The translations under genes and the position numbers were made by a program. This document shows positions 34,668 to 45,966 of a stretch of 64,000 nt of DNA, in pieces. The DNA is from Pseudomonadota bacterium (GTDB taxonomy: Bacteria > Desulfobacterota > Desulfovibrionia > Desulfovibrionales > Desulfovibrionaceae). The notes beneath the pieces are model-generated. The model saw only the letters and a list, made by a program, of their open reading frames with translations, searched no databases and was not told where the DNA came from. The stretch covers positions 67,694 to 131,693 of the forward strand of contig JAEWKM010000050.1 in the NCBI GenBank assembly GCA_023386035.1, given 5' to 3'. Each line of letters starts with the position of its first letter. Positions within the stretch are counted from its first letter, which is position 1.

Positions 34668-36338
34668 ATGGAAAAGCTGGCCAAAAGAAAAATTCGCATA
34701 TTCTATTACGTAACGGGGTTTCTGGCGCTGTTGGCCCTTTCTGTGGCGCTGTCGGTGCCCTACTTCATTTCGGTGCGAAAGCAGTTTGATATGATGGTCG
34801 GCGAATCCAGGGCGCGTATATTCAAGGAAAAAAAAGACACCCTCGCAGAAAGGGTCGAAAGGGTTGTGGCCGAAATAGAAGCCATACGCCTGACTGTGTA
34901 CAAGGAATACCAGACCCTGGCCGAAGCCCAGTGCGCCATGCTGTCTACCCTTAAAATGAGCACACAGGACATTATAAACGGCTTTGATCCCAGAGTGACA
35001 AAACGTACCGCCCGGTTCGTTTTGCACAACACGGGCATTGGTCTGGCCGTTTATGACCGTGAAAGCCAGGAAATTCTGTGGACAGACGAAGATGCCCTTG
35101 TGCCCCAGCTGCTTGTTGAGTTCAAGCGCTCGCAGCAGGGGCCGTCGGAGGATTTTCCTGTATGGTCTTCCTGTAATCTTGGCGATAACCGTATGGTTGC
35201 CATTTTTGCTGTCAGGGAGGCCATAGACAATATCGCCAAAAGCCGCAGCATCGCCATTGTGCGCAGCCTGCGGTTTTCACTTAATCAGTACATTTGGATT
35301 AACGGAGTTCGTAACTACAACGGCGGGCCAGACTATGCCGTTCGCGTCGTGCACCCGTCGCTGGTCGGTGATGAAGAGGTGCTGCTGTCCACTGAAACCG
35401 CCGACCCCGCGGGCAATCTGCCCTACAAGGAAGAGCTGGAGGGCGTGCTCAAGCACGGGAGCGTCTATTTTACCTACCAGTTCAATAAAATCCATTCGGA
35501 CGAAGTGACTGAAAAACTCGCCTACGCCCAGCTGTACAAGCCCTTTGACTGGATTATATGCACGGGCATCCACACTGACGATATGGTGTCTCTGGTGGCA
35601 AAGCGCGAGGCTGATTTCAATAGGGCTTTCAAGAATCAAATATCTTCCTACGCCAAAATAATTTCCATCATCAGCCTGCTGTACATAGGCATGATGGTTC
35701 TTTTCGAGCGCAGGCTCACCAGCATGGTCAATATTTTCATCGTCAAACTCAAGGAAGACGAGGCCGAGCTGAGGAAGGAAAAAAACAAGCTGGATGAAGC
35801 CTATCGTGAATTGCAGCGTGTAGCCTACAGTGATTTTCTCACCGGCCTGCTCAACCGCCGGGCCATGTACGAAAGGCTGGAAGAGGAGTTTTCGCGTGCT
35901 CAGCGGGACGGGCTTCAGTTCTGCCTCGTACTGGCAGACATTGACCACTTCAAGTCCGTCAATGACACCTACGGCCATAATACGGGCGACGTGGTGCTGA
36001 AGGCCATTGCCGAGATTTTTCGCCAGAATATTCACCCCGAAGACAGCGCCTCGCGCTGGGGCGGCGAAGAGTTTCTTATTCTTGCCCTTTCAAGCTCCCT
36101 GAAAGAAGGCCTTGTTCTGGCGGAAACCCTGCGTCAAACAGTGGAAAGCACGACGATTCACGATGGCGATATCGCCATTAACGCGACCATCACTTTGGGA
36201 GTGGTGGAGTATGCTCCGGGTAAATCTTTCGACGCTCTCATCAAGGAAGCGGATTTTTACCTTTATGCGGGTAAAAAGCGGCAAAGAAACTGCGTCATGT
36301 CCAGTGAAAGTTCAGGCGAAGCTCCACTAAAAATATGA
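34668..36338 (+). CDS. Cache-type sensor diguanylate cyclase (GGDEF)
   Basis: N-terminal TM, a periplasmic Cache-like region and a second TM. GGDEF domain (DFLTGLLNRR, DIDHFKSVNDTYGH, RWGGEEFLIL). Confidence 0.88.
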   Translation: MEKLAKRKIRIFYYVTGFLALLALSVALSVPYFISVRKQFDMMVGESRARIFKEKKDTLAERVERVVAEIEAIRLTVYKEYQTLAEAQCAMLSTLKMSTQDIINGFDPRVTKRTARFVLHNTGIGLAVYDRESQEILWTDEDALVPQLLVEFKRSQQGPSEDFPVWSSCNLGDNRMVAIFAVREAIDNIAKSRSIAIVRSLRFSLNQYIWINGVRNYNGGPDYAVRVVHPSLVGDEEVLLSTETADPAGNLPYKEELEGVLKHGSVYFTYQFNKIHSDEVTEKLAYAQLYKPFDWIICTGIHTDDMVSLVAKREADFNRAFKNQISSYAKIISIISLLYIGMMVLFERRLTSMVNIFIVKLKEDEAELRKEKNKLDEAYRELQRVAYSDFLTGLLNRRAMYERLEEEFSRAQRDGLQFCLVLADIDHFKSVNDTYGHNTGDVVLKAIAEIFRQNIHPEDSASRWGGEEFLILALSSSLKEGLVLAETLRQTVESTTIHDGDIAINATITLGVVEYAPGKSFDALIKEADFYLYAGKKRQRNCVMSSESSGEAPLKI

Positions 36339-36473: not shown

Positions 36474-37892
36474 CTACAAGTATGGTGAAAAAATCCAGCA
36501 GGCGGCGTTGCGCAGTCTGACGGGCAGCGACAGTTTTTTCAGGTCTGCAGCAGTAATTTCTGTGCTCTGGGCGATGGTCGCGTCGATATGTGACGCGACC
36601 TGCTTGCAAAACTGCGGATCAAACACTTCCATATTCAGTTCAAAATTGAGGCGCAAACTGCGAGTGTCCAGGTTGGCCGAACCCACCTGGCTGTAATAAT
36701 AGTCCACGGTGAGCAGCTTGGTGTGGGCAAAGGGCGGCGGCTGATACCACACGCGCACGCCAGCTTCGATCAGCGTGGGCAGCAGGCGAAATTGCGCCCA
36801 GTGCACATAAAACAGGTTGTTTTTGGCTGGCAGCACCACGCTTACGTCCACACCTCGCTGCGCCGCGCTGCGCAGGGCCGACACAAGGCCGTGCGAGGGC
36901 AGAAAATAGGGCGTCATGATGCGGACAGACTGGCGGGCGGCATTGACCACACCGCAGTAAATGTCGTTGAGCACATCCGCTTCTGAGCCGGGGCCGTCCA
37001 TAATGATGCGGCAATGGCTTTCGCCAGCGGGCAGGGTGCTGGCCGGGGGAAGCGGCGTGTACTTGCCCGTGCAGAAACCCCAGTTGAGCAGGAAGGCCCG
37101 GCGTAGCTGGTCCACAATGGGGCCCTGGCAATGAAAGTGCATGTCCTGAACGTACTTGGTCTTTCCGGCTGCGATATTGTCGTCGGAAATATTCATGCCG
37201 CCCGTAAAGGCAGTATTGTCGCAAACAAGCATTTTGCGGTGGTTACGCAGGTTGATGCTGAAATTGGGCGGAAAGAGGCGCGGCGGCAGAAACATTGCCA
37301 CCTGAACACCGTGTTCTGCCAGATTTTTCCAGGGTTTGCGCCAGGAATACAGCATGCCGATGCCGTCTACCAGCAAACGCACATCAACGCCGCGCTGCGC
37401 CGCTTCGGTCAGGGCCTCGCCAAACTCCGTGGCGACCTTGCCCGCGTTGAAAATATAGGTGCAGAGAAAAACCTGCTTTTTGGCTTCACGGATGGCCTTG
37501 AGCATAAGCGGGTACGCTTCGTCGCCGTTGTGCAGGGGCGTGAGGCTGTTGCCGACGGACAGATGCTGCTCCGTCAGGTGGCGGCCAATTTTTTCCATAC
37601 TGATGATGTAATCGGGCAGCCCTTCCGGCGGTGTCTTGGGAAAAGGCGGATGGGCATAGTCTGGTTCAAGCGGTTCCTGACGCCGCATTATGCGGCTGGC
37701 GTGGCTCTCTGCCCGGCTGATGCCAAAGGTCGCGTACAAAAGGGGACCCACCAGCGGCAGAAGCAGGGCCGTCACGGTCCATCCCAGAGCCGCACGGGGA
37801 TCGTGCTTGGTCAGCAACGCGTGGCAGACGGCAATCCATGACAAGATGTGTACGGCCAGCAAAGCCAGTGTTTCCAACACTCCTATGATCAT
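36474..37892 (-). CDS. cls: Cardiolipin synthase (phospholipase D family)
   Basis: Two HKD motifs (NHRKMLVCD, HTKLLTVD...GSANLD). N-terminal TM helices. Start at MIIGVLETL with an AAGGA RBS. Confidence 0.9.
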   Translation of the reverse strand: MIIGVLETLALLAVHILSWIAVCHALLTKHDPRAALGWTVTALLLPLVGPLLYATFGISRAESHASRIMRRQEPLEPDYAHPPFPKTPPEGLPDYIISMEKIGRHLTEQHLSVGNSLTPLHNGDEAYPLMLKAIREAKKQVFLCTYIFNAGKVATEFGEALTEAAQRGVDVRLLVDGIGMLYSWRKPWKNLAEHGVQVAMFLPPRLFPPNFSINLRNHRKMLVCDNTAFTGGMNISDDNIAAGKTKYVQDMHFHCQGPIVDQLRRAFLLNWGFCTGKYTPLPPASTLPAGESHCRIIMDGPGSEADVLNDIYCGVVNAARQSVRIMTPYFLPSHGLVSALRSAAQRGVDVSVVLPAKNNLFYVHWAQFRLLPTLIEAGVRVWYQPPPFAHTKLLTVDYYYSQVGSANLDTRSLRLNFELNMEVFDPQFCKQVASHIDATIAQSTEITAADLKKLSLPVRLRNAACWIFSPYL

Positions 37893-38030
37893 GCCATATC
37901 CTTTGCGAGGGGTGGTTCTAGTACTGCAATTCGCCGGGCGCACGCCAAAAGGGGGCAGAACGGCCAGGTGCCGTGTTGAAAAGGGATTTTCTGTCCCGGT
38001 TTTAGGCAATTGCAGGTTGGAAAATGTACG

Positions 38031-38076
38031 CCAGAATCGGGCCGCCCGCGGTATCCGGCTGACGGCCCGATTCTGG
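38031..38076 (-). terminator. Possible terminator hairpin after the giant sensor gene
   Basis: CCAGAATCGGGCCG ... CGGCCCGATTCTGG (14-bp arms). On the minus strand a short T-run follows a few nt later. Confidence 0.45.
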
Positions 38077-38087
38077 ATAAATTCATG

Positions 38088-41000
38088 CTATCGGCCCTGA
38101 TGGCGCGGGTTGAGCGCAATGCGGTTGCGTTCAACAGCTACGGACAGTTCGGGCAAGAGATCGCGCAGGGCGTTCATGTCGTTGGCCTTGGCAGCTCGTT
38201 CCACGCAGCGGGCCATGCGCGCCAGCACACGGAAACCGAATGCGTCGGAATCGTTGGCAATGCGTCCGGCAGCTTCGCCAACGCCGTGGCAACTGCGCCC
38301 TTTGTATGCCCGTTGGGCGTCTTCCATTGCCTCATCCAGACGGTGTACCAGCTGTATGAGGGTTTTATCCTCCTGAACTGGCGGCGTCGCCATAACTGGT
38401 GCTGTTGCCTGCGGCACGGGCTGTGCCTGCGCCTCTTCCTGCCGTCTCATTGAGGGCTGTTGCTCAGGAGCCTGGGGTGCTGCGCCTTGCCCTGCGGGCG
38501 GCGGAGTTGCACCTGCGATAAAGTCCACAAACGAAGGTTCGCTGTCGGTTCCCTGCCTTGTGGCGGCAGTGCGCGAGGCACCGGACGGCTTTTCAAGGCC
38601 TGCCGGGGCAGAGGCAGAGGACGGAGCAACGGGTTCGGGTGCTGATTCGGAAGCAGCCACGTTGCCCAGAAGCTTCAGTATGAGCCTGCCTGTGGCCGTG
38701 CGAGGCAACTCCCGGGGCTTCTGGGCTGCTGCCACGGGTTCCTGAGCGGGCACAGCCGTTGAAGTCGCCGCTCCCTTGCCTTCTGTTTCAGAAAGATTCG
38801 GACCGGGCCAGGGAATGGCGCGCAAAGGCTTGGCAGGCGCATCTGACGTCGCAGCGTCTGTGCCGGGCAGGCTGGCATTCTGCGCCGTTGGCGTTGCCAG
38901 CGATCTTGCCTGCGCGGGGCGCTCTGCGCTTTCAGCAGAGGCGCTTTTGGTCATGGGCATGGGTTCGCCCACCCATTCGCCGGAACCAGACATGCTGGGG
39001 CTCACATAGGAGCGGGATTCCGTCCTGTCTTTTGAGGTTTGGGAGGCTGTGGATGTTGCAGGAGCGTTAACGCTTGCGGTACGCACGCTTGTGGAAGGCG
39101 GCGTGCCGATGGGCATGGGTTCGCCCACCCACTCATCGCCCTGCAGGCTGTCGTGCTGCGCTGCGTCAGATCCGGGAAAATTGCGGTCCAGGTATTCCTC
39201 AGGGCTTGTAGCCTGGGCTGTCTCTGCCGTGCCCGCGACGCGAACTTCCGGCTGGGCCTGAGGCTGTTCTGCCTTTACATCTTCCCCGGTGTGCGAGGTG
39301 TTCGACTGCGGGGCGCTGGGCGCAAAAGACGTAGCAGGCGCGTTGACTGGCCGCAGTACGGCTTCACCAATTTTACCCTGAATCGTAATGACGGGCTGGC
39401 CCGCATGCGCGGTGGAGTTGCTTATGGCTGCGGCCAGACTGGCCGCAGGAGAACCTGTTTCGTCCGCACGGGATTCCGGCGCGGCGTCCACACCAGAAGT
39501 GGGGTCTGTAAAAGCGGTATGTTCAGAAGTACCGTCATTGGCCGGCTGACTGCTGGTGGGGTCTGCCTCTGTTGTTGAAAGCTCTTCAGGCCGCACTTCT
39601 GCTGGCATTTCTGCCGCATCAGAACTTTCGGTCAGGTATTCTCCCTCAACGGCCACAACATCTTCTGTGGCGGCTTCTTCGTCAATGTCTTCGCTGTGCT
39701 GTTGGGCAGGTTCCTTCTGGCTTTGCTCTGGCCGGGTTGTCTCAGACTGGGCTGGCCCTGCTTGTACAGGCACGGGCTGACCCAGAGAATCCTGATCTTC
39801 CATAGGGGTGGATGCATCAGGCTGGTCCTCAGAAAAATGAGAAGGCTGCTGCGTTGCATCCTCATGCGGCATGGCTTGTTCTGGGCCGGAAAGGGAGTTT
39901 TCAGGCGCAGTGGCATCAGCAGGGGACTCGGGTGCCGAAATGCTTTCAGTGTCCCACTGAGGGCCTTCCAGCCCCGCAGCGGCAATGAAGTCGGCAGCGT
40001 CTAAAGATGCATCAAGACCGTCGTGTTCAGAAGCGTCGTGCGCTGTGTCAGCATCCAGAGCGTCGTCAGGCGTCACAAAGGATTCAGCTTCGGGCAGAAC
40101 GCTGCTGAATTCGCCCTGCGCGTTCTCCTGTTTCGGTTGTTCGGGCATGCCCTCGGCGGCCAACTCTTCCACAGGCTTTGCATGGGCTTGCGGCGTCGCG
40201 TCAGTCGTGTCGTCTTCAATCAGGTTCTGACCGTCGCCATCTTCAAGGCCAGCGGAAGCGGCGGCCTCACTGGAAGCATCAGAGTCAATGGAGTTATCCG
40301 TGGACCCTGAGGAGTCCGGGAAATCCGTGGAGCCGAGGGTATCCGTCGCGTCGGCACCATCAAGCATGTCTGCGGCATCGCTTGCGTCAGCGTCGGTGGT
40401 GGCTTCTGAAGCGGCAAGAGATTCAAAGCTCAGATCAGCGGAGAGTTCTTCATTGCTTTCGGCGACGTCATTCACGGCGCTGTTTTCGGGCATGCCCGGC
40501 AAAGGCAGTTGCAGGGATTCCAGATTGGAAAGATCCGGCATATCGGGGTCATTGGGATCTTCCGGCTGTTCCGGCAGGGGAGCCATGTGGGGCAAAAGCA
40601 CCCCGGCATCCGCAACCATAGTCGCCTCTGTGGCGTCAAGATGGGCGTCCGCGTCTTCATGCGGCTCCATTGCGGCATCAGGGCCAGAAGTGGCGGAATC
40701 AGAAGCCTCGGGCCACGGCAGCGTTGTTTCGCGCATCTGATCGGTCATGCCGAGAATTTGCGGCAGGGCTGTAAGGTCGGGCAGACGCATGCTGCTTGCA
40801 TCGTGGGGTGTCCAGGGAGAACTTGCGCCAAAAAGGTCGGGCAGCTCTGAAAGAGAACCCTCTGCCGTGCCGGGCGCACTGCCTTGGGCTTCTTCTGTAT
40901 GACTTTGCCCATCAACAGTTTCAGCAGCCGTTGCGGCAGTTTCAGCATCAACCTGGGCATCTCCGGTCTCGGGCGCTTGCTGCACGTCTTGCGCATTGAG

Positions 41001-43649
41001 GGAAGGCAAGGAAAATCCTGCCTCTTCAAATACTTCGCGCAAGGTCACGGCAAAAGCGGCCCGGTCTACCGGCTCCAGCAGGGCGTGGGTATAGCCAGAC
41101 TCCGCCAGGGCGTCCCAGCGGCTGTCGTCGGCAGTGATGGCCAATGCCTTGAAAAAGGGCAGACCTGCGTCAAGCGCCTGATTTCTGAAGCGGTCCAGCG
41201 CGTCGGTTTCAGCGGGGCCGTCCATAGGCGAATGCACCACCAGCAGAAGGGCCGGAGCTTCCTTGTTGAGCTCCAGAGCTTCGCGCATGGTGCGGGCTTC
41301 TGTGCTTTGCAGGCCTTGGGCGGCGGTCAGGTGCGCCAGATCCTGACGCTCCACGGCTCTGTCGGCCACAATGGTCACATGGGCTTCACGCGGTTCTGGC
41401 GCGGCGGCTTCATGTTCCAGCGGTTTGAGGCGCAGTGTGAAAGAAATGGTTGTGCCGTGGGGGCCGCATTCCACATTGAGATAACAGTTGTTGGTTCCGG
41501 CGAGTTCCCAGGCCCGTGTGAGGGCAAGGGTAGAGCGGCTGCGCGGGGGAATGCCAGCGCCCGTATCCGTTACCGTAAAGAGCAGGTGGCCAGGGTCGGC
41601 GCTTTCCGGCACTCGCCGGACAGAAAGGTGTACGGCCCCGCGCGTGGTGGCGCGTACCGCGCTTTCCAGCAGCAGGCAAAGAGTTTCGCGCAGGGTTTGG
41701 GCCTGCCCTTCATACATGTGTCCAAGCAGGGGCGGCATGTACCAGGCCAGCCCTATGCCTGCGTTTTCGGCAGTGGTGCTGACGGCGTCGTGAGCCTCGC
41801 GCACCATGTGCTGCAGGTTGAAAGCGCTGCGGGGCTCGCCGATGGCGCTGTGGTCCAGGCTTTTACCGGGATTGTCGACGGCATGCGCCAGATCGGTGGC
41901 AGCCTCAAGCATGTTTTCAGCGTACTGCCGCACAGCCGGAGGCAGCGAGCAGTTGTTCAGGGCCGCACCTTCACGCATAAGACGGTCAAGAGGCGCGCGC
42001 AGGGCGTTTTCCCACAGGCAGGGATCAGCACCCGCAAACGCTGACGGGGTAGCCCGGTTCGCGGCACTTGTTTGCGCAGGCGCACCTTCGGGGCTGTTGT
42101 CGCCGCCCCAGGAAAGTGTGGACTGCAAAGGCGTGCCCAGCGGCGCCTCTGCACCGCGCTTCCAGGCATTGCCGCTGCTGGCGGTGGGTGATGGCGGCAA
42201 AAGGCGCAGATTGGGGTCGTCCAGCGGTTGATCCAGATTAATGGCCCCGTCTTCCATCATAAGGGCTGCATCGGCATCACCGATGCCTCTGCCCGCCATA
42301 TCGGACATGCCGGGCCCGCCAAGGCCTTCCAGACCGGGCAATGATTTGCCTTTTTTCTTGCCTTTTTGTTTTTTGTCGTCAGCGCTGTTCTGGGCCATGT
42401 CGCGCGGGGCTCCGGTGCCCGCAATGATAAGCGCGCTCAGGGCCGTGCCCCACAGAGGGGCGGACGCCATAAGATTGGCGGCATAGCCGCTGTCGACACC
42501 AAGAACTCCGGCAACCACAAAGGCAGGCGGCAGCAGGCAGCCCAGCAAAAAGCGCCTTGCCCCGCCAAGGCCCATAACGGCTCCGCCGATGGCGCTTGGT
42601 ACAAAAATAAGAGTGCATATGGGCCACAGGGCCAGATAGCGAATAATCCAGCTGAAGCCCGGCATGAGGGGCAGCAGCGCCAAGGCTGCGCCCGGCAGGG
42701 AAAGCAGCACGAACTGCGCGTCCAGCAGGCGGGAGCGTTGTTTGGTGCGCAAAAGGTGACGGCCCACATGCGGCAGCAGCATAAGCGCCACGCCGGGGCT
42801 TATCACGGCGGCAGCCTCCAGCATTGTGATATGCCCGGAACCGTAGCCGGGCATACCCATAACGGCCTGCGCCAAGGCGGCGGCCACATACAGGGCTGTC
42901 CAGACGCGCCACTGGCCTTTTTCAGAAAGGCCGCGCAAAAGGCAGAGCAGCATGACCACGCCCATAGCCAGAATTGCCGCTGTTCCCGCAAGGCTGCCCC
43001 AGTTGTTGGCAGCGTCCTGCGGGGTGCGCAGCATGGGTTCAAACCACAGGCCGGGCACGCCGTCGAGGCGAATATAGCAGGTCAGCGGTTCGCTGGTAGC
43101 CTCGGGCAGCAGAAGCACGTCACGCTGGGTTGGAACAATCTCTCTCCATTCCACACTATCAGTGAGAGGATTGACGTGCGGTTCGTAAAGAACAGGGCCG
43201 TCGGGCACGCTGGCCCCCATATCAAGCAGCATGGTTCCCGCTTTTGCGCCCTGGGGCAGCGGGGCAAGCGTAAAGCGCAGCCACATGATGCCCACGGCGC
43301 GCGGCAGGGTTTTCATGTTCAGCGGCTGAAAGGCACTGGCATTGGCCGGGGTTGCCACTTCCTCCACGTCCATAGTGCCTGTCTGGTCAATGAAATACTG
43401 AAGCCGGGGCAGCAAGGGGGCGCTTGAAGCGGACAGGGCGGGAGGCACCATGCTTTTCTGAATGCTGACGGGAGGCGGCGAAAGTAGCGCCTCTGTGGGC
43501 GCAGCCCTGAGCGCGCCCGGAAGTGCGGCCAGAAAAATCAGGCACAGCAGCGTGGCGCTCAAGCGCGCAGCCGCGTTGCAACCACGCCGGAGCTGACGAG
43601 CCTCGGTGTGATTTTTGCCGGAATGGGGGCCGGTATGGATATATGTCAT
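38088..43649 (-). CDS. Giant (1853 aa) 7TM-DISM-type membrane sensor with kinase-like, receiver-like, long disordered and HPt-like regions
   Basis: Signal peptide, a periplasmic domain and seven predicted TM helices (about aa 215-412). HATPase-like region with VTDTGAGIP. Receiver-like region (aa ~757-875). About 860 aa rich in D/E/S/T/A/P. C-terminal helical region with a CHGVGEAAG HPt-like motif. Confidence 0.85.
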   Translation of the reverse strand: MTYIHTGPHSGKNHTEARQLRRGCNAAARLSATLLCLIFLAALPGALRAAPTEALLSPPPVSIQKSMVPPALSASSAPLLPRLQYFIDQTGTMDVEEVATPANASAFQPLNMKTLPRAVGIMWLRFTLAPLPQGAKAGTMLLDMGASVPDGPVLYEPHVNPLTDSVEWREIVPTQRDVLLLPEATSEPLTCYIRLDGVPGLWFEPMLRTPQDAANNWGSLAGTAAILAMGVVMLLCLLRGLSEKGQWRVWTALYVAAALAQAVMGMPGYGSGHITMLEAAAVISPGVALMLLPHVGRHLLRTKQRSRLLDAQFVLLSLPGAALALLPLMPGFSWIIRYLALWPICTLIFVPSAIGGAVMGLGGARRFLLGCLLPPAFVVAGVLGVDSGYAANLMASAPLWGTALSALIIAGTGAPRDMAQNSADDKKQKGKKKGKSLPGLEGLGGPGMSDMAGRGIGDADAALMMEDGAINLDQPLDDPNLRLLPPSPTASSGNAWKRGAEAPLGTPLQSTLSWGGDNSPEGAPAQTSAANRATPSAFAGADPCLWENALRAPLDRLMREGAALNNCSLPPAVRQYAENMLEAATDLAHAVDNPGKSLDHSAIGEPRSAFNLQHMVREAHDAVSTTAENAGIGLAWYMPPLLGHMYEGQAQTLRETLCLLLESAVRATTRGAVHLSVRRVPESADPGHLLFTVTDTGAGIPPRSRSTLALTRAWELAGTNNCYLNVECGPHGTTISFTLRLKPLEHEAAAPEPREAHVTIVADRAVERQDLAHLTAAQGLQSTEARTMREALELNKEAPALLLVVHSPMDGPAETDALDRFRNQALDAGLPFFKALAITADDSRWDALAESGYTHALLEPVDRAAFAVTLREVFEEAGFSLPSLNAQDVQQAPETGDAQVDAETAATAAETVDGQSHTEEAQGSAPGTAEGSLSELPDLFGASSPWTPHDASSMRLPDLTALPQILGMTDQMRETTLPWPEASDSATSGPDAAMEPHEDADAHLDATEATMVADAGVLLPHMAPLPEQPEDPNDPDMPDLSNLESLQLPLPGMPENSAVNDVAESNEELSADLSFESLAASEATTDADASDAADMLDGADATDTLGSTDFPDSSGSTDNSIDSDASSEAAASAGLEDGDGQNLIEDDTTDATPQAHAKPVEELAAEGMPEQPKQENAQGEFSSVLPEAESFVTPDDALDADTAHDASEHDGLDASLDAADFIAAAGLEGPQWDTESISAPESPADATAPENSLSGPEQAMPHEDATQQPSHFSEDQPDASTPMEDQDSLGQPVPVQAGPAQSETTRPEQSQKEPAQQHSEDIDEEAATEDVVAVEGEYLTESSDAAEMPAEVRPEELSTTEADPTSSQPANDGTSEHTAFTDPTSGVDAAPESRADETGSPAASLAAAISNSTAHAGQPVITIQGKIGEAVLRPVNAPATSFAPSAPQSNTSHTGEDVKAEQPQAQPEVRVAGTAETAQATSPEEYLDRNFPGSDAAQHDSLQGDEWVGEPMPIGTPPSTSVRTASVNAPATSTASQTSKDRTESRSYVSPSMSGSGEWVGEPMPMTKSASAESAERPAQARSLATPTAQNASLPGTDAATSDAPAKPLRAIPWPGPNLSETEGKGAATSTAVPAQEPVAAAQKPRELPRTATGRLILKLLGNVAASESAPEPVAPSSASAPAGLEKPSGASRTAATRQGTDSEPSFVDFIAGATPPPAGQGAAPQAPEQQPSMRRQEEAQAQPVPQATAPVMATPPVQEDKTLIQLVHRLDEAMEDAQRAYKGRSCHGVGEAAGRIANDSDAFGFRVLARMARCVERAAKANDMNALRDLLPELSVAVERNRIALNPRHQGR

Positions 43650-43746
43650 GATAATTCCGCCTGTATCCTCTGGCTGTATGCGGCAAAGCCCCGGTAAAGG
43701 GCGTATTTTGAAGCCGGAGGCGCGGCAGCAAGCCGCGCCTTCAGTT

Positions 43747-44526
43747 TTAATGCAGGTGCTCCATCAGTTCGGAAACGGGCTTGCCGTCCGGGGCGCGCGC
43801 GGCGGGATTCACCTGTAAAAGGCGCTTCCAGGCGGCCTCGGCTTCGTCCTTGCGCTTGAGGTCGTAGTACAACACGACGCCTTCATTGAACATGGCGTTT
43901 TCAAGGTCGGGCTGTAGTGACGAAGCCTTGCGGAAGCTGGCTACGGCCTTGTCGAACTGGCCAAGCTCGCGCTGCATGATGCCAAGGTCGGTGAGCACGT
44001 GCGCGTTGCCGGGTTCGATGGACAAGGAGCGCTCGTAGGCGGATATGGCCTTTTGGGGCTGCCCGGTGTCAAAATAGAGATTGCCCAGGCTGGCCCAGCG
44101 TGAAGCGTCGCGGGGATTATCCAGCACGGCCTTTTCCAGCTCACCTATGCGCGCCGACAGTTCGGGCGTAACTTGCGGCATTCCGGCTTGCGGGGCGGGG
44201 CGCGCATTTTCAGGAGCCTGCGCCGATGAAGCCGGAGCAGCCGCCTGCTGCTGGGGCATGGACTGAGAAGGGGAATCGTGCAGCATGGATGGAATCAGGC
44301 TGCCCACATACAGGCCGAGAACCAGGGCCACGGCCACACTCATGATATATGTGCCTTTGCGCACGGTGCCAGCCGGGGCTGCCTCAGGCTGATCGTGCCT
44401 GACGGAAGCCTTGGAAGCTGGCTGCGACACGGGCTGAGTGCCGGGGGCCACACTGCTGGGCGTGGTGGGAGAAGGCTTTTGCCCTTGTTCCGAGCCGGGG
44501 GAATTTTTGCTTTTACGACGGGCCAT
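43747..44526 (-). CDS. Membrane-anchored TPR protein (NrfG/CcmI-like TPR region)
   Basis: Single TM (IMSVAVALVLGLYVGSLIPSML). TPRs with NPRDASRWASLGNLYFDTGQPQKAISAYERSLSIEPGN resemble the CcmI/NrfG apocytochrome-chaperone TPR pattern. GAGG RBS. Confidence 0.75.
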   Translation of the reverse strand: MARRKSKNSPGSEQGQKPSPTTPSSVAPGTQPVSQPASKASVRHDQPEAAPAGTVRKGTYIMSVAVALVLGLYVGSLIPSMLHDSPSQSMPQQQAAAPASSAQAPENARPAPQAGMPQVTPELSARIGELEKAVLDNPRDASRWASLGNLYFDTGQPQKAISAYERSLSIEPGNAHVLTDLGIMQRELGQFDKAVASFRKASSLQPDLENAMFNEGVVLYYDLKRKDEAEAAWKRLLQVNPAARAPDGKPVSELMEHLH

Positions 44527-44724
44527 GAAGTCCTCTTGGAGTATTTTCGCGCCGGGGCTGTAAGTTCCCGCAGCGTTGCATACGCCGATGCGGCGTTTTA
44601 AAGCGTTTCACATTTGTAATGCCCGCAAGAATATGGGCACAAATTTTTGCCGCGAAGCACATTGCGGGCCTTGCTTGCTGTTGAGCGCCTGCTGCACGCG
44701 GGCGCTGCGTTGGAGCAGATTACA

Positions 44725-44744
44725 TTGAGAATGTGTATTCTCAA
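44725..44744. promoter_or_regulatory. 20-bp palindrome TTGAGAAT-GTGT-ATTCTCAA (candidate operator)
   Basis: Perfect 8-bp arms. The half-site GTGTATTCTCA recurs at 44851-44861. Confidence 0.4.
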
Positions 44745-44990
44745 AATTTGCGGTACGCCTGTTATGGCGTTTGCCCGCGCAAATACCTGACCGGACAACG
44801 GCTGCTGCTGCGTGTATGCCATATGGCTGGCGCTGTTTACACCGCCGTTTGTGTATTCTCACCTGAGTGCACTACACGGATAAAAGCGCGCGTTTGCCGA
44901 TGCGCCTTCAATGCTGGCGGTATTTTGCCCGCTGGCTATGGTTGTTGAGGTCTCGGGGCCGCAATCTTTGCGGTAAAAGGTACAACCAGT

Positions 44991-45038
44991 AAAAAAAAGA
45001 GGCAAGCCCGCAGCTTGTGTAAGCGCTGCGGGCTTGCC
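44991..45038 (-). terminator. Rho-independent terminator of the ccm operon
   Basis: Minus strand: GGCAAGCCCGCAGC-gcttacacaa-GCTGCGGGCTTGCC, then CTCTTTTTTTT. Confidence 0.85.
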
Positions 45039-45155
45039 CGTATTTCTGGCCTGCATCCTGCCCTCATATCGGGCATGGCCGGGAAACTGCTCATTCTGGT
45101 TCAACGCCCGGGTGTTCCGTCCGGGCCAACCCGGATGGAGCAGGCAGCCGCCAAC

Positions 45156-45836
45156 TTATTTTGCATTTCCGGCGGGAGCCTTGGCTTTTGCGGCCTTGTC
45201 AGCGCTTTTGTTTTCAGGCCTGGCGCTCTGTTCTGCCCCAGATTTGGCGTCCTGCTGTGGCTGCTGCGCCTTTTCCAGTTCCTGCACCATGGCCTTTTTA
45301 AGCTCTTCAGCGGCCTTGGGGTCATTAAGGCCAGCGCTCAGATGTTCCACGCCCTTGGCCGGATTTTCAAGAAAATAGATGTACAGCACGCCAAGGCTGT
45401 AACGAACGGAAGCTTCGTCCTTGATAGCGAGCACTTTTTCAAGCGCTTCGGCGGCTTCCTTGTTGCGTCCCTGATTGTGCATGATGACGCCAAGCAGGTA
45501 GAGAGGCTTGGAGTTGCCCGTGTCCAGCGTTACGGCGCGCTGGGCAAAGGTTTCGGCTGCATCCCAGTTCTGGGCGCTCACAAGGTGCTCGACCAGATGG
45601 ATCATGGCGGTGCTGTCGTTGGGATTTTCCGCCACCTGACGCATGAGCTTGCCTATTTGCTGGGCATCGTCGTCCTGCCCGCCAGCCTGAGCCGCCGAGC
45701 CGGGCCGCCGCTGTTCGGTAAGCGAAGGCTTTTCAAAACGTTCCTTGAGCGAAGCGGCCAGCATGATTACAAGGCCCAGAGCCAGTACAATGATAAGCGC
45801 GCGCGAAGAAGTTGTGCGCTTGGGGCTGTCAGTCAT
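45156..45836 (-). CDS. Membrane-anchored TPR protein at the end of the ccm operon (CcmI-like candidate)
   Basis: Start at MTDSPKRTTSSRALIIVLALGLVIML (TM) behind GGGAG. TPR-like helices. The start overlaps the ccmD stop (ATGACTGA). Confidence 0.7.
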   Translation of the reverse strand: MTDSPKRTTSSRALIIVLALGLVIMLAASLKERFEKPSLTEQRRPGSAAQAGGQDDDAQQIGKLMRQVAENPNDSTAMIHLVEHLVSAQNWDAAETFAQRAVTLDTGNSKPLYLLGVIMHNQGRNKEAAEALEKVLAIKDEASVRYSLGVLYIYFLENPAKGVEHLSAGLNDPKAAEELKKAMVQELEKAQQPQQDAKSGAEQSARPENKSADKAAKAKAPAGNAK

Positions 45837-45966
45837 GATTAATAATCTCCCATTGGGCAAGGCGTGCGGCAAGAGCGCGCTGGCGCGCCCCCATAAAGGC
45901 CAGGTAAGCGCCAAGGCCAATCCATACGGCGGCGTTGGCCATGATGATCCAGGTCAGGGTGTCCAT
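45829..45966 (-). CDS. ccmD: Heme exporter protein CcmD (45 aa; below the ORF-track cutoff)
   Basis: Hand translation gives MDTLTWIIMANAAVWIGLGAYLAFMGARQRALAARLAQWEIINHD. Single TM plus a basic tail. GGAGG RBS. Position between ccmC and the TPR gene. Confidence 0.75.
   Translation of the reverse strand: MDTLTWIIMANAAVWIGLGAYLAFMGARQRALAARLAQWEIINHD

Follow-up and report, generated by a model that had tools for sequence, protein, structure and literature searches.

The gene and its neighbourhood

One open reading frame on the minus strand of the window (the whole stretch of 64,000 nucleotides that was analysed) encodes a protein of 1853 amino acids, referred to below as the sensor. The frame starts with ATG, has no internal stop and ends with the stop codon at 38088-38090. 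The features of this gene and of its surroundings are given below with coordinates, strand and, in parentheses, the evidence used for the assignment.

36474..38009, minus strand: cardiolipin synthase gene (cls), frequent downstream neighbour (gene calls, synteny)
38088..43649, minus strand: whole gene, 1853-aa 7TMR-DISM pseudo-phosphorelay protein (ORF list and translation)
43503..43649, minus strand: aa 1-49, basic stretch and hydrophobic signal peptide or anchor, ..LLCLIFLAALPGALRA/AP.. (hydropathy, conservation in L001)
43005..43502, minus strand: aa 50-215, periplasmic 7TMR-DISMED2 beta-sandwich sensor domain (Pfam, homolog model)
42405..43004, minus strand: aa 216-415, seven transmembrane helices (hydropathy, P0094 model)
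42015..42404, minus strand: aa 416-545, low-complexity juxtamembrane linker with a KKQKGKKKGK patch (composition, sequence)
42201-42227, minus strand: aa 475-483, conserved PLDDPNLRL island inside the juxtamembrane linker (conservation)
41415..42014, minus strand: aa 546-745, degenerate histidine-kinase core, DHp hairpin and CA domain (Pfam/NCBIfam, BLASTP, homolog model)
41010..41387, minus strand: aa 755-880, degenerate receiver domain (alignment to the P0213 receiver, homolog model)
38370..41009, minus strand: aa 881-1760, disordered acidic linker (composition, homolog model)
39108..39134, minus strand: aa 1506-1514, motif copy 1, EWVGEPMPI (motif search, logo)
38952..38978, minus strand: aa 1558-1566, motif copy 2, EWVGEPMPM (motif search, logo)
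38091..38369, minus strand: aa 1761-1853, HPt-like four-helix bundle without phospho-His (AlphaFold, Foldseek, hhalign, alignment columns)
43716..43742, no strand assigned: 11-bp GC-rich hairpin between the TPR gene and the sensor gene (sequence analysis)
43747..44526, minus strand: upstream partner gene, 259-aa bitopic TPR protein (Pfam/NCBIfam, hydropathy, synteny)

By our own arithmetic a stop-free run of 1853 codons at about 61% G+C has a chance probability of approximately 1e-25, and exactly the same protein is encoded by three contigs (NCBI, Logan and ENA), which represent three independent assemblies. The sister species L001 has an 1861-aa ortholog, in which the N-terminus is also conserved. 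The frame was unbroken over 1448-1861 codons in all eight related genomes checked, one of them a complete D. desulfuricans chromosome, and Desulfovibrio sp. 86 carries full-length family members on a 3.46-Mb contig. Tandem Repeats Finder detected no DNA repeats in the sensor gene, thus its long linker is neither a recent repeat expansion nor an assembly stutter. The ORF is real and intact. The first-pass annotation, made from the sequence alone, had described it as single and uninterrupted, and had named a lack of domain matches and an artefactual or frameshift-split ORF as findings that would speak against its description; neither was observed, because the frame is intact in independent assemblies and related genomes and the domain homologies hold.

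Comparison with the L001 ortholog gave dN/dS values of 0.11 (aa 1-880), 0.40 (linker) and 0.07 (C-terminal domain), and amino acid identities of 94%, 74% and 96%, respectively. Dozens of residues are invariant across members whose overall identity is just 38-55%. Judged from the sequence comparisons, all folds of the sensor are under strong purifying selection despite the lost phosphorylation sites described below. A protein in which all catalytic residues are gone, and whose linker evolves fast and with many indels, might be taken for a decaying relic, or for an annotation or assembly artefact, without function. Against this stand the frame that is intact in eight genomes, the identical protein in three assemblies, the invariant residues and the dN/dS of 0.07-0.11 in the folded parts as compared to 0.40 in the linker; these conservation data effectively refute an explanation that we find hardly credible.

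In the window the sensor gene closes a cluster of ccmF-A-B-C and two TPR genes and lies just upstream of cls. The gap to the adjacent TPR gene is 97 nt, and the hairpin located there has no T-run on the coding strand. The TPR protein has a basic cytoplasmic N-tail, one transmembrane helix (aa 58-83) and a TPR domain that is predicted, on the basis of the positive-inside rule, to be periplasmic. The TPR gene was found directly upstream of the sensor gene in 67 of 71 loci, and it also adjoins the sensor gene of P0213, a relative with a live kinase. Upstream sequence of 6 kb or more was available for 57 loci, 18 of which have the TPR gene and lack ccmF/B/C. In D. desulfuricans SFAD67 the TPR gene adjoins the sensor gene, and mutY, a serine dehydratase gene and an MFS transporter gene follow further upstream. 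Related loci were also searched for a neighbouring response regulator or kinase gene that is conserved, and none was found.

The neighbour had been annotated as a CcmI/NrfG-like TPR protein. A TPR membrane protein does lie directly upstream, but a CcmI/NrfG identity is doubtful: the Pfam TPR_CcmH_CycH match is borderline (42.7 vs 42 bits), the NCBIfam matches are generic TPR matches only (NrfG, E 1.5e-4), and 18 loci are free of upstream ccm genes. Because the TPR gene stays beside the sensor gene where no ccm genes are near, its product is better seen as a dedicated partner of the sensor.

These observations bear on an explanation in which the sensor is an accessory or regulator of envelope biogenesis, serving cytochrome c maturation through a CcmI-like TPR protein or cardiolipin synthesis through cls. 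It would sense, for example, periplasmic haem, apocytochrome or the state of the membrane lipids and act directly on these machines. Such a role would fit the position of the gene between the ccm-TPR cluster and cls, the presence of cls downstream in 43 of 58 loci and the TPR_CcmH_CycH score just over the cut-off, and the Arg-rich C-terminal bundle could in principle bind anionic lipid. However, the ccm linkage is not conserved, as the ccm-free loci and the unrelated upstream genes in D. desulfuricans show, the TPR partner has generic NCBIfam matches only, and the other TPR gene of the cluster (45156-45920), which directly follows ccmC, is the better CcmI candidate. Moreover, cls is missing downstream in about one quarter of the loci, and also at the locus of the live relative P0213. 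We therefore consider this role distinctly improbable.

The membrane receptor and its degenerate kinase and receiver domains

The N-terminal hydrophobic segment, which could be a signal peptide or an anchor, spans aa 24-52 by hydropathy. It is followed by the domain that characterizes 7TMR-DISM receptors: Pfam PF07696 (7TMR-DISMED2) matches aa 81-196 with an E-value of 3.7e-5 and 24.1 bits (gathering cut-off 22), and is also found in relatives of the sensor. AlphaFold modelled the equivalent region of the full-length homolog P0094 as all-beta, at a pLDDT of more than 90. The membrane block is hydrophobic from aa 217 to about 413, and the P0094 model has seven confident helices at residues 185-377. 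Pfam PF07695, the seven-helix membrane module, had no match in the sensor and gave weak, sub-threshold matches in the relatives P0213 and P0221. The KKQKGKKKGK basic patch comes after the last transmembrane helix. Within the PLDDPNLRL island, conservation in the family reaches 90% or more at P475, D478, P479, L481 and R482. The DISMED2 domain and the seven-helix block are the most conserved parts of the sensor and contain many invariant residues. AlphaFold pLDDT values above 90 were obtained for the beta-sandwich, the seven transmembrane helices, the DHp, CA and receiver domains and the four-helix bundle.

The first-pass annotation had recognized a kinase-core-like and a receiver-like region, and their homology was borne out. 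BLASTP with aa 540-885 matched P0213, which has Pfam-significant HisKA, HATPase_c and Response_reg domains, with an E-value of 7e-34. In the sensor the HATPase_c match (aa 650-706) is partial and below threshold, at 22.6 bits against a gathering value of 26.4, and the kinase-like core gave weak matches to TorS/RcsD/BarA and RetS/GacS. Among NCBIfam models TorS, BarA and ArcB were the best matches, with RcsD second-best. In structural comparison the kinase-like region of the P0094 model matched ShkA, DivL, GacS, RetS and HK853, DivL being second-best. The BLASTP match to P0213 and the homolog model indicate that the DHp helical hairpin and the alpha/beta fold of the CA domain are present. The receiver-like segment (aa 755-880) aligns to the receiver of P0213, and the P0094 model gives it a (beta/alpha)5 fold; Response_reg is found by Pfam in less degenerate relatives. 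In the sensor itself Pfam Hpt, HisKA and Response_reg all remained below threshold.

The residues on which phosphotransfer depends are replaced. The H-box His is Asn549, in the sequence WENALRAPL that corresponds to SHDLRTPL in live relatives, and across the family this column is Glu, Ser or Asn. The N-box Asn is Ser (LLESAVRAT), and a deletion of 20 residues falls where P0213 carries the ATP lid (F/G2) with GGAGLGL. The G1 box is kept (DTGAG; DTGxG is conserved), which may allow some nucleotide binding. In the receiver-like domain His stands in place of the phospho-acceptor Asp, A-D in place of the acidic pair and Glu in place of the conserved Lys; all of these sites vary within the core family. 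As read from the alignments, the kinase-like and receiver-like regions lack every residue for making, accepting or passing a phosphoryl group, and a phosphorelay interpretation of the module order fails in both of them.

The family comprises hundreds of members at 50% clustering, in Desulfovibrio and other Desulfovibrionaceae; databases list them under generic names, for example '7TM-DISM domain-containing protein' or 'response regulator'. The rare relatives P0213, P0221 and P0217 share the N-terminal sensor part and the same C-terminal domain, have a short linker, and keep the SHDLRTPL, N, G1 and G2 boxes as well as the DD/D/S/K residues of the receiver. Intermediate members keep just the receiver Asp and/or Lys, and the core family, to which the 1853-aa sensor belongs, has lost all phospho-residues of both domains. 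Because these rare relatives retain a live kinase and receiver, the sensor can be assigned to a lineage of degenerated 7TMR-DISM hybrid kinases of the Desulfovibrionaceae. This unusually clean natural series, from live kinase through dead kinase with live receiver to a fully dead protein, offers a model for the conversion of a two-component protein into a pseudo-enzyme.

The C-terminal bundle, the acidic linker and the EWVGEP motif

AlphaFold predicts the C-terminal ~93 aa as a four-helix bundle with a mean pLDDT of 90.5. Its top structural match in the PDB was HptB (7c1i; TMq 0.86, rmsd 1.9 A) and many other HPt domains were among the matches, with Foldseek E-values above 0.01 for what is a common fold. 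A PDB profile search with this domain retrieved nothing but designed helical-repeat proteins, so that no HPt domain was found at the sequence level, and a single-sequence PDB search with the C-terminus gave nothing meaningful. Pfam Hpt matched weakly and below threshold in 27 of 43 family members. The link to HPt domains is made on these sub-threshold matches, the hhalign alignment and the fold match. In the hhalign alignment ArcB His717 falls on Gly1795, a column that holds Ala, Gly or Glu in the family; the Lys at +3 is Ala. His occurs there in 4 of 246 members, leaving 242 without it, and the HPt His is absent even in P0213 and P0221. Helix 2 of the bundle has no conserved His anywhere among the 246 members. 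The first-pass annotation had singled out His1788 as HPt-like. The bundle with HPt topology stands, but His1788 is neither equivalent to the HPt His nor conserved, being His in 16 of 246 relatives. With the HPt His missing from the live relatives too, a classical His-Asp-His relay has probably at no time passed through this domain in the lineage.

A working phosphorelay has nevertheless to be considered, either through non-canonical residues (His1788 or other His and Asp residues) or by relaying the phosphate of another kinase in the manner of RcsD. In its favour, the order of kinase, receiver and HPt domains is that of unorthodox kinases and of RcsD, and His1788, seven residues before the canonical HPt position, would lie on the same helix face. 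The scarcity of His in both columns and in helix 2 as a whole, the family-wide loss of the H-box His, N-box Asn, ATP lid and receiver Asp and Lys, and the sub-threshold Pfam Hpt, HisKA and Response_reg scores speak against it. With every phospho-residue lost the sensor cannot work as a phosphorelay, and we give this explanation very little credence.

The long acidic disordered segment reported in the first pass was confirmed. Between aa 881 and 1760 there are 157 Asp and Glu and 33 Lys and Arg residues, with a net charge of -124, and the composition is rich in A/P/S/E/D/T; the first ~480 aa are hyper-acidic, whereas the last ~300 aa are near-neutral and Pro-rich. The equivalent region of the P0094 model has a pLDDT of about 35. 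Linker lengths, measured by HMM in 190 members, range from 44 to 878 aa, and that of the 1853-aa sensor is the longest. The complete module order was thereby substantiated: 7TMR-DISMED2, seven transmembrane helices, kinase-like and receiver-like domains, the ~880-aa acidic disordered linker and the HPt-like bundle.

The linker carries one to three copies of an almost invariant motif, EWVGEPxP[IV]. The logo of 313 copies reads (in per cent) E93 W100 V99 G100 E97 P100 x P98 [IVLM]. The distance from the motif to the C-terminal domain is fairly fixed (median 183 aa), while the length of the acidic spacer varies. Of 120 close homologs 92 contain EWVGEP, as do 143 of the 190 dead-kinase members; its absence from the other 47 shows that the motif is not essential to the core function of the family. 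None of the three members with a live H-box contains it. Searches of the window and of ~1.2 Mb of DNA flanking 80 related loci found no copy other than those inside the sensor gene. At the motifs the full-length monomer model of P0094 has neither a confidence bump nor secondary structure. This agrees with binding of a partner in trans. A near-invariant short motif in an 880-aa acidic disordered linker is a rare combination in bacterial signalling proteins.

Two candidate binders of the motif were considered. For docking onto the sensor's own domains the P0094 model gave no support and no hint of a docking site, as judged by its confidence values and secondary structure. The upstream TPR protein was ruled out, its TPR domain being predicted to be periplasmic and the motif cytoplasmic.

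A FimV/HubP-like polar localization had been suggested as a possibility in the first-pass annotation. A linker of this kind raises the question of whether the protein is a structural hub or landmark like FimV, HubP or PsmA, in which sensing is secondary or absent: the N-terminal anchor would set the position at the pole or septum, and the acidic linker and C-terminal domain would gather clients. The hyper-acidic linker (44-878 aa in the family) ending in a small conserved helical domain and the short motifs repeated within it are what such a hub might look like, and a hybrid-kinase-like pseudokinase in a polar complex provides a precedent (PMC12963549). However, the DISMED2 domain and the transmembrane block are the most conserved parts, implying that input sensing still matters, and whole-protein Pfam and NCBIfam scans found neither a LysM domain nor the FimV C-terminal motif. 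We regard a mainly structural role as rather unlikely. A hub function and a pseudokinase receptor are not mutually exclusive.

Proposed mode of action and comparison with known systems

Of the explanations considered we favour, as the probable one, a pseudokinase receptor or scaffold whose signal is carried by contacts between proteins and is free of phosphotransfer. The protein is descended from an 'unorthodox' 7TMR-DISM hybrid histidine kinase (DISMED2, 7TM, HisKA, HATPase_c, receiver and HPt-like domain). The periplasmic DISMED2 domain would detect an envelope or extracellular cue, probably together with the co-encoded membrane-anchored TPR protein; contact between the two is suggested by synteny and topology. 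The 7TM bundle would then relay the change to a dimeric pseudo-kinase module, whose output would consist of protein-protein contacts and involve no catalysis. The dead DHp/CA and receiver domains and the basic His-less HPt-like bundle may dock or sequester bona fide two-component proteins, an output modelled on RetS, DivL and the plant pseudo-HPt AHP6. EWVGEPxP[IV], ~180 aa before the C-terminal bundle and behind the variable hyper-acidic spacer, would recruit a partner in trans. Elements of this scheme have parallels: dimerisation of GacS is disrupted by RetS (PMC8498467), PsmA, a hybrid-kinase-like pseudokinase, binds DivIVA (PMC12963549), and pseudo-HPt proteins without the conserved His have been described in plants (PMC7402358).

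A more specific proposal, which we put forward tentatively, is that the receptor has abandoned phosphotransfer altogether and that its long, tunable, hyper-acidic tether, the EWVGEPxP[IV] motif and the His-less HPt domain, acting as a 'decoy', recruit or sequester partners, with the TPR protein as the co-receptor for input. The partners could be, for example, response-regulator receivers, and the periplasmic co-receptor would be dedicated to the sensor. Signalling of this kind is usually associated with eukaryotes, and the sensor would be a bacterial example. If true, gut and rumen Desulfovibrio would possess a signalling module that is new and specific to them.

Desulfovibrio are the main sulfate reducers and H2S producers of the human and animal gut, and to our knowledge almost nothing is known about how they sense their environment there. 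The family is conserved across the genus and is built on the DISMED2 sensor chassis known from RetS and LadS. The pipeline labels 'response regulator' and 'sensor histidine kinase' given to its members mislead regulon prediction. Literature searches on 7TMR-DISM in Desulfovibrio, on DISMED2 and on the EWVGEP string returned no paper describing the family; in this respect the first-pass impression that the combination is not a described system is supported, but with hundreds of members it is not unique.

Among known systems RetS and LadS of Pseudomonas, like the sensor, combine a periplasmic 7TMR-DISMED2 domain with a 7TM block and have a receiver after the kinase core; the RetS kinase region was among the best sequence and structure matches. 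In RetS the H-box His is retained, two receivers are present and an HPt-like domain is lacking. The sensor does not have this layout of a kinase core with two tandem receivers and no HPt: it has one degenerate receiver-like domain, the 880-aa motif-bearing disordered linker and a His-less HPt-like end, it is devoid of any phospho-acceptor, and it is encoded next to a TPR partner gene. RetS also resembles our proposal in acting largely by binding another kinase instead of by a linear phosphorelay (PMC8498467).

RcsD likewise combines a His-less kinase-like domain, an Asp-less receiver-like domain and an HPt-type bundle. RcsD probably receives its signal by way of IgaA, a second protein of the inner membrane, a further likeness to the scheme proposed here. 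The dead kinase and receiver-like domains of this type are present in the sensor, but the live HPt His is absent, whereas RcsD has retained the phospho-His of its HPt, which is a genuine phosphotransferase. RcsD also differs in its periplasmic and membrane parts, and it has no long disordered linker. With the unorthodox kinases (BarA/GacS, TorS, ArcB, EvgS) the sensor shares the order of kinase, receiver and HPt; its live relatives P0213 and P0221 resemble kinases of this type built on a 7TMR-DISM chassis, whereas the sensor misses all three phosphorylation sites.

DivL of Caulobacter and PsmA of Streptomyces are, like the sensor, kinase-like proteins without a catalytic His; they work by protein-protein contacts, as is proposed for the sensor. 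Neither is known to us to carry a 7TMR-DISM input, and they lack an HPt-like domain, a giant acidic linker and the EWVGEP motif. The plant pseudo-HPt proteins of the AHP6 type have, like the C-terminal bundle of the sensor, an HPt fold minus the phospho-accepting His, and AHP6 probably acts through partner competition. AHP6 is eukaryotic and stands alone, whereas in the sensor a disordered linker connects the domain to a membrane receptor; the literature searched yielded no bacterial pseudo-HPt counterpart.

Like the sensor, FimV and HubP are anchored in the membrane, have a very long acidic stretch of low complexity in the cytoplasm whose length varies, and end in a small conserved domain. 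In contrast to them, the sensor has no LysM domain or FimV C-terminal motif, and its N-terminal half is a full sensor-kinase chassis. In chemoreceptors the NWETF pentapeptide, a short invariant motif on a flexible tether, recruits CheR and CheB. The likeness to EWVGEP is conceptual only, with no sequence relationship between the two; unlike NWETF, EWVGEP is internal, occurs in one to three copies and is a candidate recruitment motif.

Intact frame and domain layout of the sensor

The 7TMR-DISM sensor is encoded on the (-) strand at 38088-43649 by 1853 codons, beginning with ATG and containing zero internal stops, in agreement with the single uninterrupted ORF of the first-pass annotation. GC content by codon position in its folded parts is similar to that of the neighbouring genes. 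The possibility of an assembly artefact was checked, and the ORF proved not to be one: the identical 1853-aa protein is present on three contigs (NCBI, Logan and ENA assemblies; longest contig 147 kb), and related genomes carry intact orthologs. The closest locus, L001 (MAG Desulfovibrio sp. 3M006, neighbour proteins 88-99% identical), has an intact ortholog of 1861 aa, and intact long versions were found in D. falkowii (1731 aa), the complete chromosome of D. desulfuricans (1632 aa) and D. piger ATCC 29098 (1448 aa). A 1777-aa member lies on a 3.46 Mb contig of Desulfovibrio sp. 86, and the sensor's 90% cluster also includes members of 1866 and 1882 aa. The best match of the word-indexed homology search was only 66% identical, and this cluster (1853, 1866, 1882 aa) was not listed there. 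The first-pass annotation had proposed a comparison of distribution and linker length. When each species was represented by a single genome, 80 related loci were found, almost all of them carrying the label Desulfovibrio or Desulfovibrionaceae. In 190 full-length members the linker is acidic in all, with lengths of 44-878 aa (median 464), that of the sensor being the longest measured.

Amino-acid identity between the sensor and its L001 ortholog is 94.1% in aa 1-880, 74.2% in the linker (40 gap columns) and 95.7% in the C-terminal domain; the corresponding dN/dS values (Nei-Gojobori) are 0.11, 0.40 and 0.07. These values indicate that the entire frame is translated and under selection, with relaxed constraint on the linker and very strong constraint on the two ends. 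That the protein is a relic without function is scarcely credible.

The following features were located in the N-terminal part:

aa 24-52, hydrophobic signal or anchor segment (hydropathy)
aa 81-196, 7TMR-DISMED2 domain (Pfam, score above gathering)
aa 217 to about 413, membrane block (hydropathy)
after the last TM helix, KKQKGKKKGK patch, followed by a low-complexity juxtamembrane linker that includes a PLDDPNLRL island

PLDDPNLRL (window 42201-42227, aa 475-483) is a second conserved island inside the otherwise low-complexity linker, and its P475, D478, P479, L481 and R482 are each at least 90% conserved in 60 homologs.

A full-length AlphaFold model was built for the 1073-aa homolog P0094 from a 67-sequence alignment. 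Six elements of it reach pLDDT above 90: a periplasmic domain made entirely of beta structure, the seven TM helices, the helical hairpin of a DHp domain, a CA domain of alpha/beta type, a receiver with the (beta/alpha)5 fold and, at the C-terminus, a four-helix bundle. From receiver to bundle pLDDT is about 35. Structure matches of its cytoplasmic part include the hybrid kinase ShkA, the pseudokinase DivL, GacS, RetS and HK853. Pfam, hydropathy and this model together bear out the proposed module order (DISMED2, 7TM, kinase-like, receiver-like, disordered, HPt-like).

Loss of the phosphorelay residues

The nearest sequence matches of the kinase-like core are the unorthodox kinases TorS, BarA and ArcB together with RcsD; it also matches the kinase regions of RetS and GacS. 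HATPase_c is matched only partially and below the Pfam threshold. In two relatives, P0213 and P0221, both among the 427 proteins found with the C-terminal domain (see below), the shared DISMED2/7TM chassis carries HisKA, HATPase_c and Response_reg domains that are significant by Pfam. The alignment of sensor aa 540-885 with P0213 (BLASTP, E 7e-34) is strong enough for the homology of the two to be judged secure. The residues that distinguish the live relatives from the sensor and its core family are listed below.

Motifs of live relatives and their state in the sensor/core family
H-box: SHDLRTPL in live relatives; WENALRAPL in sensor/core family (His to Asn; Glu or Ser in relatives)
N-box: Asn in live relatives; Ser in sensor/core family
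F/G2 ATP lid: about 20 residues including GGAGLGL in live relatives; deleted in sensor/core family
Receiver acidic pair: D-D in live relatives; A-D in sensor/core family
Receiver phospho-Asp: Asp in live relatives; His in sensor/core family
Receiver conserved Lys: Lys in live relatives; Glu in sensor/core family

The sole surviving kinase motif is the G1 box. The relatives form a graded series: P0213, P0221 and P0217 are fully live; in P0247, P0240 and P0232 the kinase is dead, with receiver Asp and Lys retained; P0236 retains only the Lys (Asp to Asn) and P0223 only the Asp; and all these residues are gone from the core Desulfovibrio clade. Ancestry and loss of function can be regarded as demonstrated. 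Live relatives are rare; the three come from Logan assemblies (P0213 on the contig of locus L081) and combine intact kinase and receiver with a linker of 44-107 aa, no EWVGEP motif and the same His-less C-terminal bundle. In P0223 and P0232 (Desulfovibrionaceae MAGs, 1750-1800 aa) the kinase-like and receiver domains are at about 1080-1410, so that the long insertion appears to lie between membrane block and kinase core, not after the receiver.

When 1.84 billion representatives were searched with a profile of the C-terminal domain, 427 proteins were found, in which the domain is always at the extreme C-terminus of hosts of about 900-1800 aa; it is kept in 117 of 120 close homologs. It was modelled as a four-helix bundle (AlphaFold, mean pLDDT 90.5), whose best PDB match is P. 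aeruginosa HptB (TMq 0.86, rmsd 1.9 A), followed by many HPt domains, all with Foldseek E-values above 0.01. Pfam Hpt gave sub-threshold matches in 27 of 43 members (best E 1.3e-4), and no HPt domain came out of a sequence-profile search of the PDB. When the ArcB HPt sequence (identical to PDB entry 1a0b) was aligned with hhalign, ArcB His717 fell on Gly1795, and the downstream G-[FL]-R-x-L corresponded to ArcB G-L-R-H-L. In an alignment of 246 members, Ala, Gly or Glu occupies column 1795, with His in only four, and the Lys(+3) of the HPt motif is Ala. His1788, previously taken for the HPt-like His, is shared by only 16 of the 246, and that assignment had to be abandoned. The HPt His is also missing from P0213 and P0221. 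Nearly all members, live relatives included, thus lack it, which indicates that the domain is an HPt-like bundle that was probably never a phospho-carrier anywhere in the lineage. Its conservation is highest in helices 3 and 4, which are rich in Arg (FG[FL]RxLARMARCVERAA...DLLPEL..AVERNR). Cys1815 (window 38205-38207), in helix 3 (ARCVERAA), is nearly invariant (112 of 120 homologs).

As judged from these residues, the sensor has no canonical route to autophosphorylate, accept or relay phosphate, and every fold is under purifying selection. A residual, non-canonical phosphorelay is very improbable.

Acidic linker and gene neighbourhood

The linker (aa 881-1760) has 157 acidic and 33 basic residues (net charge -124); positive charge is almost nil in its first ~480 residues, and the last ~300 are Pro-rich and near-neutral. 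Tandem Repeats Finder detected no DNA tandem repeats in the sensor gene. The linker carries a motif, EWVGEPxP[IV], in two copies:

aa 1506-1514, EWVGEPxP[IV], first copy
aa 1558-1566, EWVGEPxP[IV], second copy

One to three copies occur in 92 of 120 close homologs; the logo of 313 copies is E 93%, W 100%, V 99%, G 100%, E 97%, P 100%, x, P 98%, [IVLM]. Of 190 members with a dead kinase, 143 have the motif; the three whose H-box is live do not, and linkers shorter than 150 aa lack it. Its distance to the C-terminal bundle is fairly constant (median 183 aa, interquartile range 136-210), and it is the acidic spacer upstream that varies. Outside the sensor gene it was absent from every frame and gene of the window and the 80 loci, and in the P0094 monomer model it brought no gain in confidence.

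On the (-) strand the gene order is ccmF, ccmA, ccmB, ccmC, TPR gene, second TPR gene, sensor, cardiolipin synthase (cls). The surrounding features are:

45156-45920 (-), first TPR membrane protein gene, directly after ccmC
44608-45104 (-), two small ORFs (84 and 81 aa) between the TPR genes, no NCBIfam match
43747-44526 (-), second TPR gene
43716-43742, 11-bp GC-rich hairpin with 9 G-C pairs, in the 97-nt gap between TPR stop and sensor start
about 38037-38082 (-), long inverted repeat CCAGAATCGGGCCG ... CGGCCCGATTCTGG right after the sensor stop codon, then CGTACATTTTCC
34668-36338 (+), dCache-GGDEF diguanylate cyclase gene, divergent, adjoining cls

The sensor gene is thus flanked on both sides by hairpins. 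No T-run follows the upstream one on the coding (-) strand, and for this reason it does not qualify as a terminator of the canonical type; a function in processing or stability is possible. The downstream inverted repeat may be a terminator between sensor and cls. Only L001 and L002, the closest two genomes, share the dCache-GGDEF gene as a neighbour.

In the second TPR protein a basic N-tail is followed by a single TM helix and then by the TPR domain, predicted by the positive-inside rule to be periplasmic. Of 71 loci with enough upstream sequence, 67 have a homolog that ends less than 900 nt before the sensor. Contrary to its earlier description as a CcmI/NrfG-like neighbour, it keeps its place beside the sensor in 18 loci that lack ccmF/B/C, out of 57 with 6 kb or more of sequence upstream. 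The genes before it in D. desulfuricans are mutY, serine dehydratase and an MFS transporter, and the same TPR gene lies directly upstream of P0213. These observations argue that it is a long-standing partner of the sensor and not a chance-adjacent ccm component; the first TPR gene is the more plausible CcmI. At 43 of 58 loci the gene that follows the sensor is cls. A role connected with the maturation of cytochrome c or the synthesis of cardiolipin is doubtful.

Proposed binding output and known systems

The sensor is probably a pseudokinase receptor with output via binding. As to partners, signal and linker, we infer that the DISMED2 domain would sense a cue, probably with the periplasmic TPR protein as its partner, that output would pass through binding surfaces, and that the tethered EWVGEP motifs would act as recruitment sites. 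A structural hub of the FimV/HubP/PsmA type, a reading compatible with the pseudokinase receptor, is less likely but conceivable.

The building blocks are all known, and pseudo-histidine-kinases are an established concept. Public databases already list family members, under names that are generic and in part misleading. No account of the family, the triple phospho-site loss, the EWVGEP motif or the TPR pairing was found in the literature that could be searched, in keeping with the initial impression that the combination is not a described system. The family is unusual and readily testable.

DivL and the His-less plant pseudo-HPts are precedents for output through binding. The proposed input by DISMED2 and TPR partner would be analogous to the RcsD-IgaA pair, and recruitment by the EWVGEP motifs may be likened to the NWETF tether of chemoreceptors. 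Further precedents for output through binding are RetS, which acts on GacS (PMC8498467), and PsmA, which binds DivIVA (PMC12963549).
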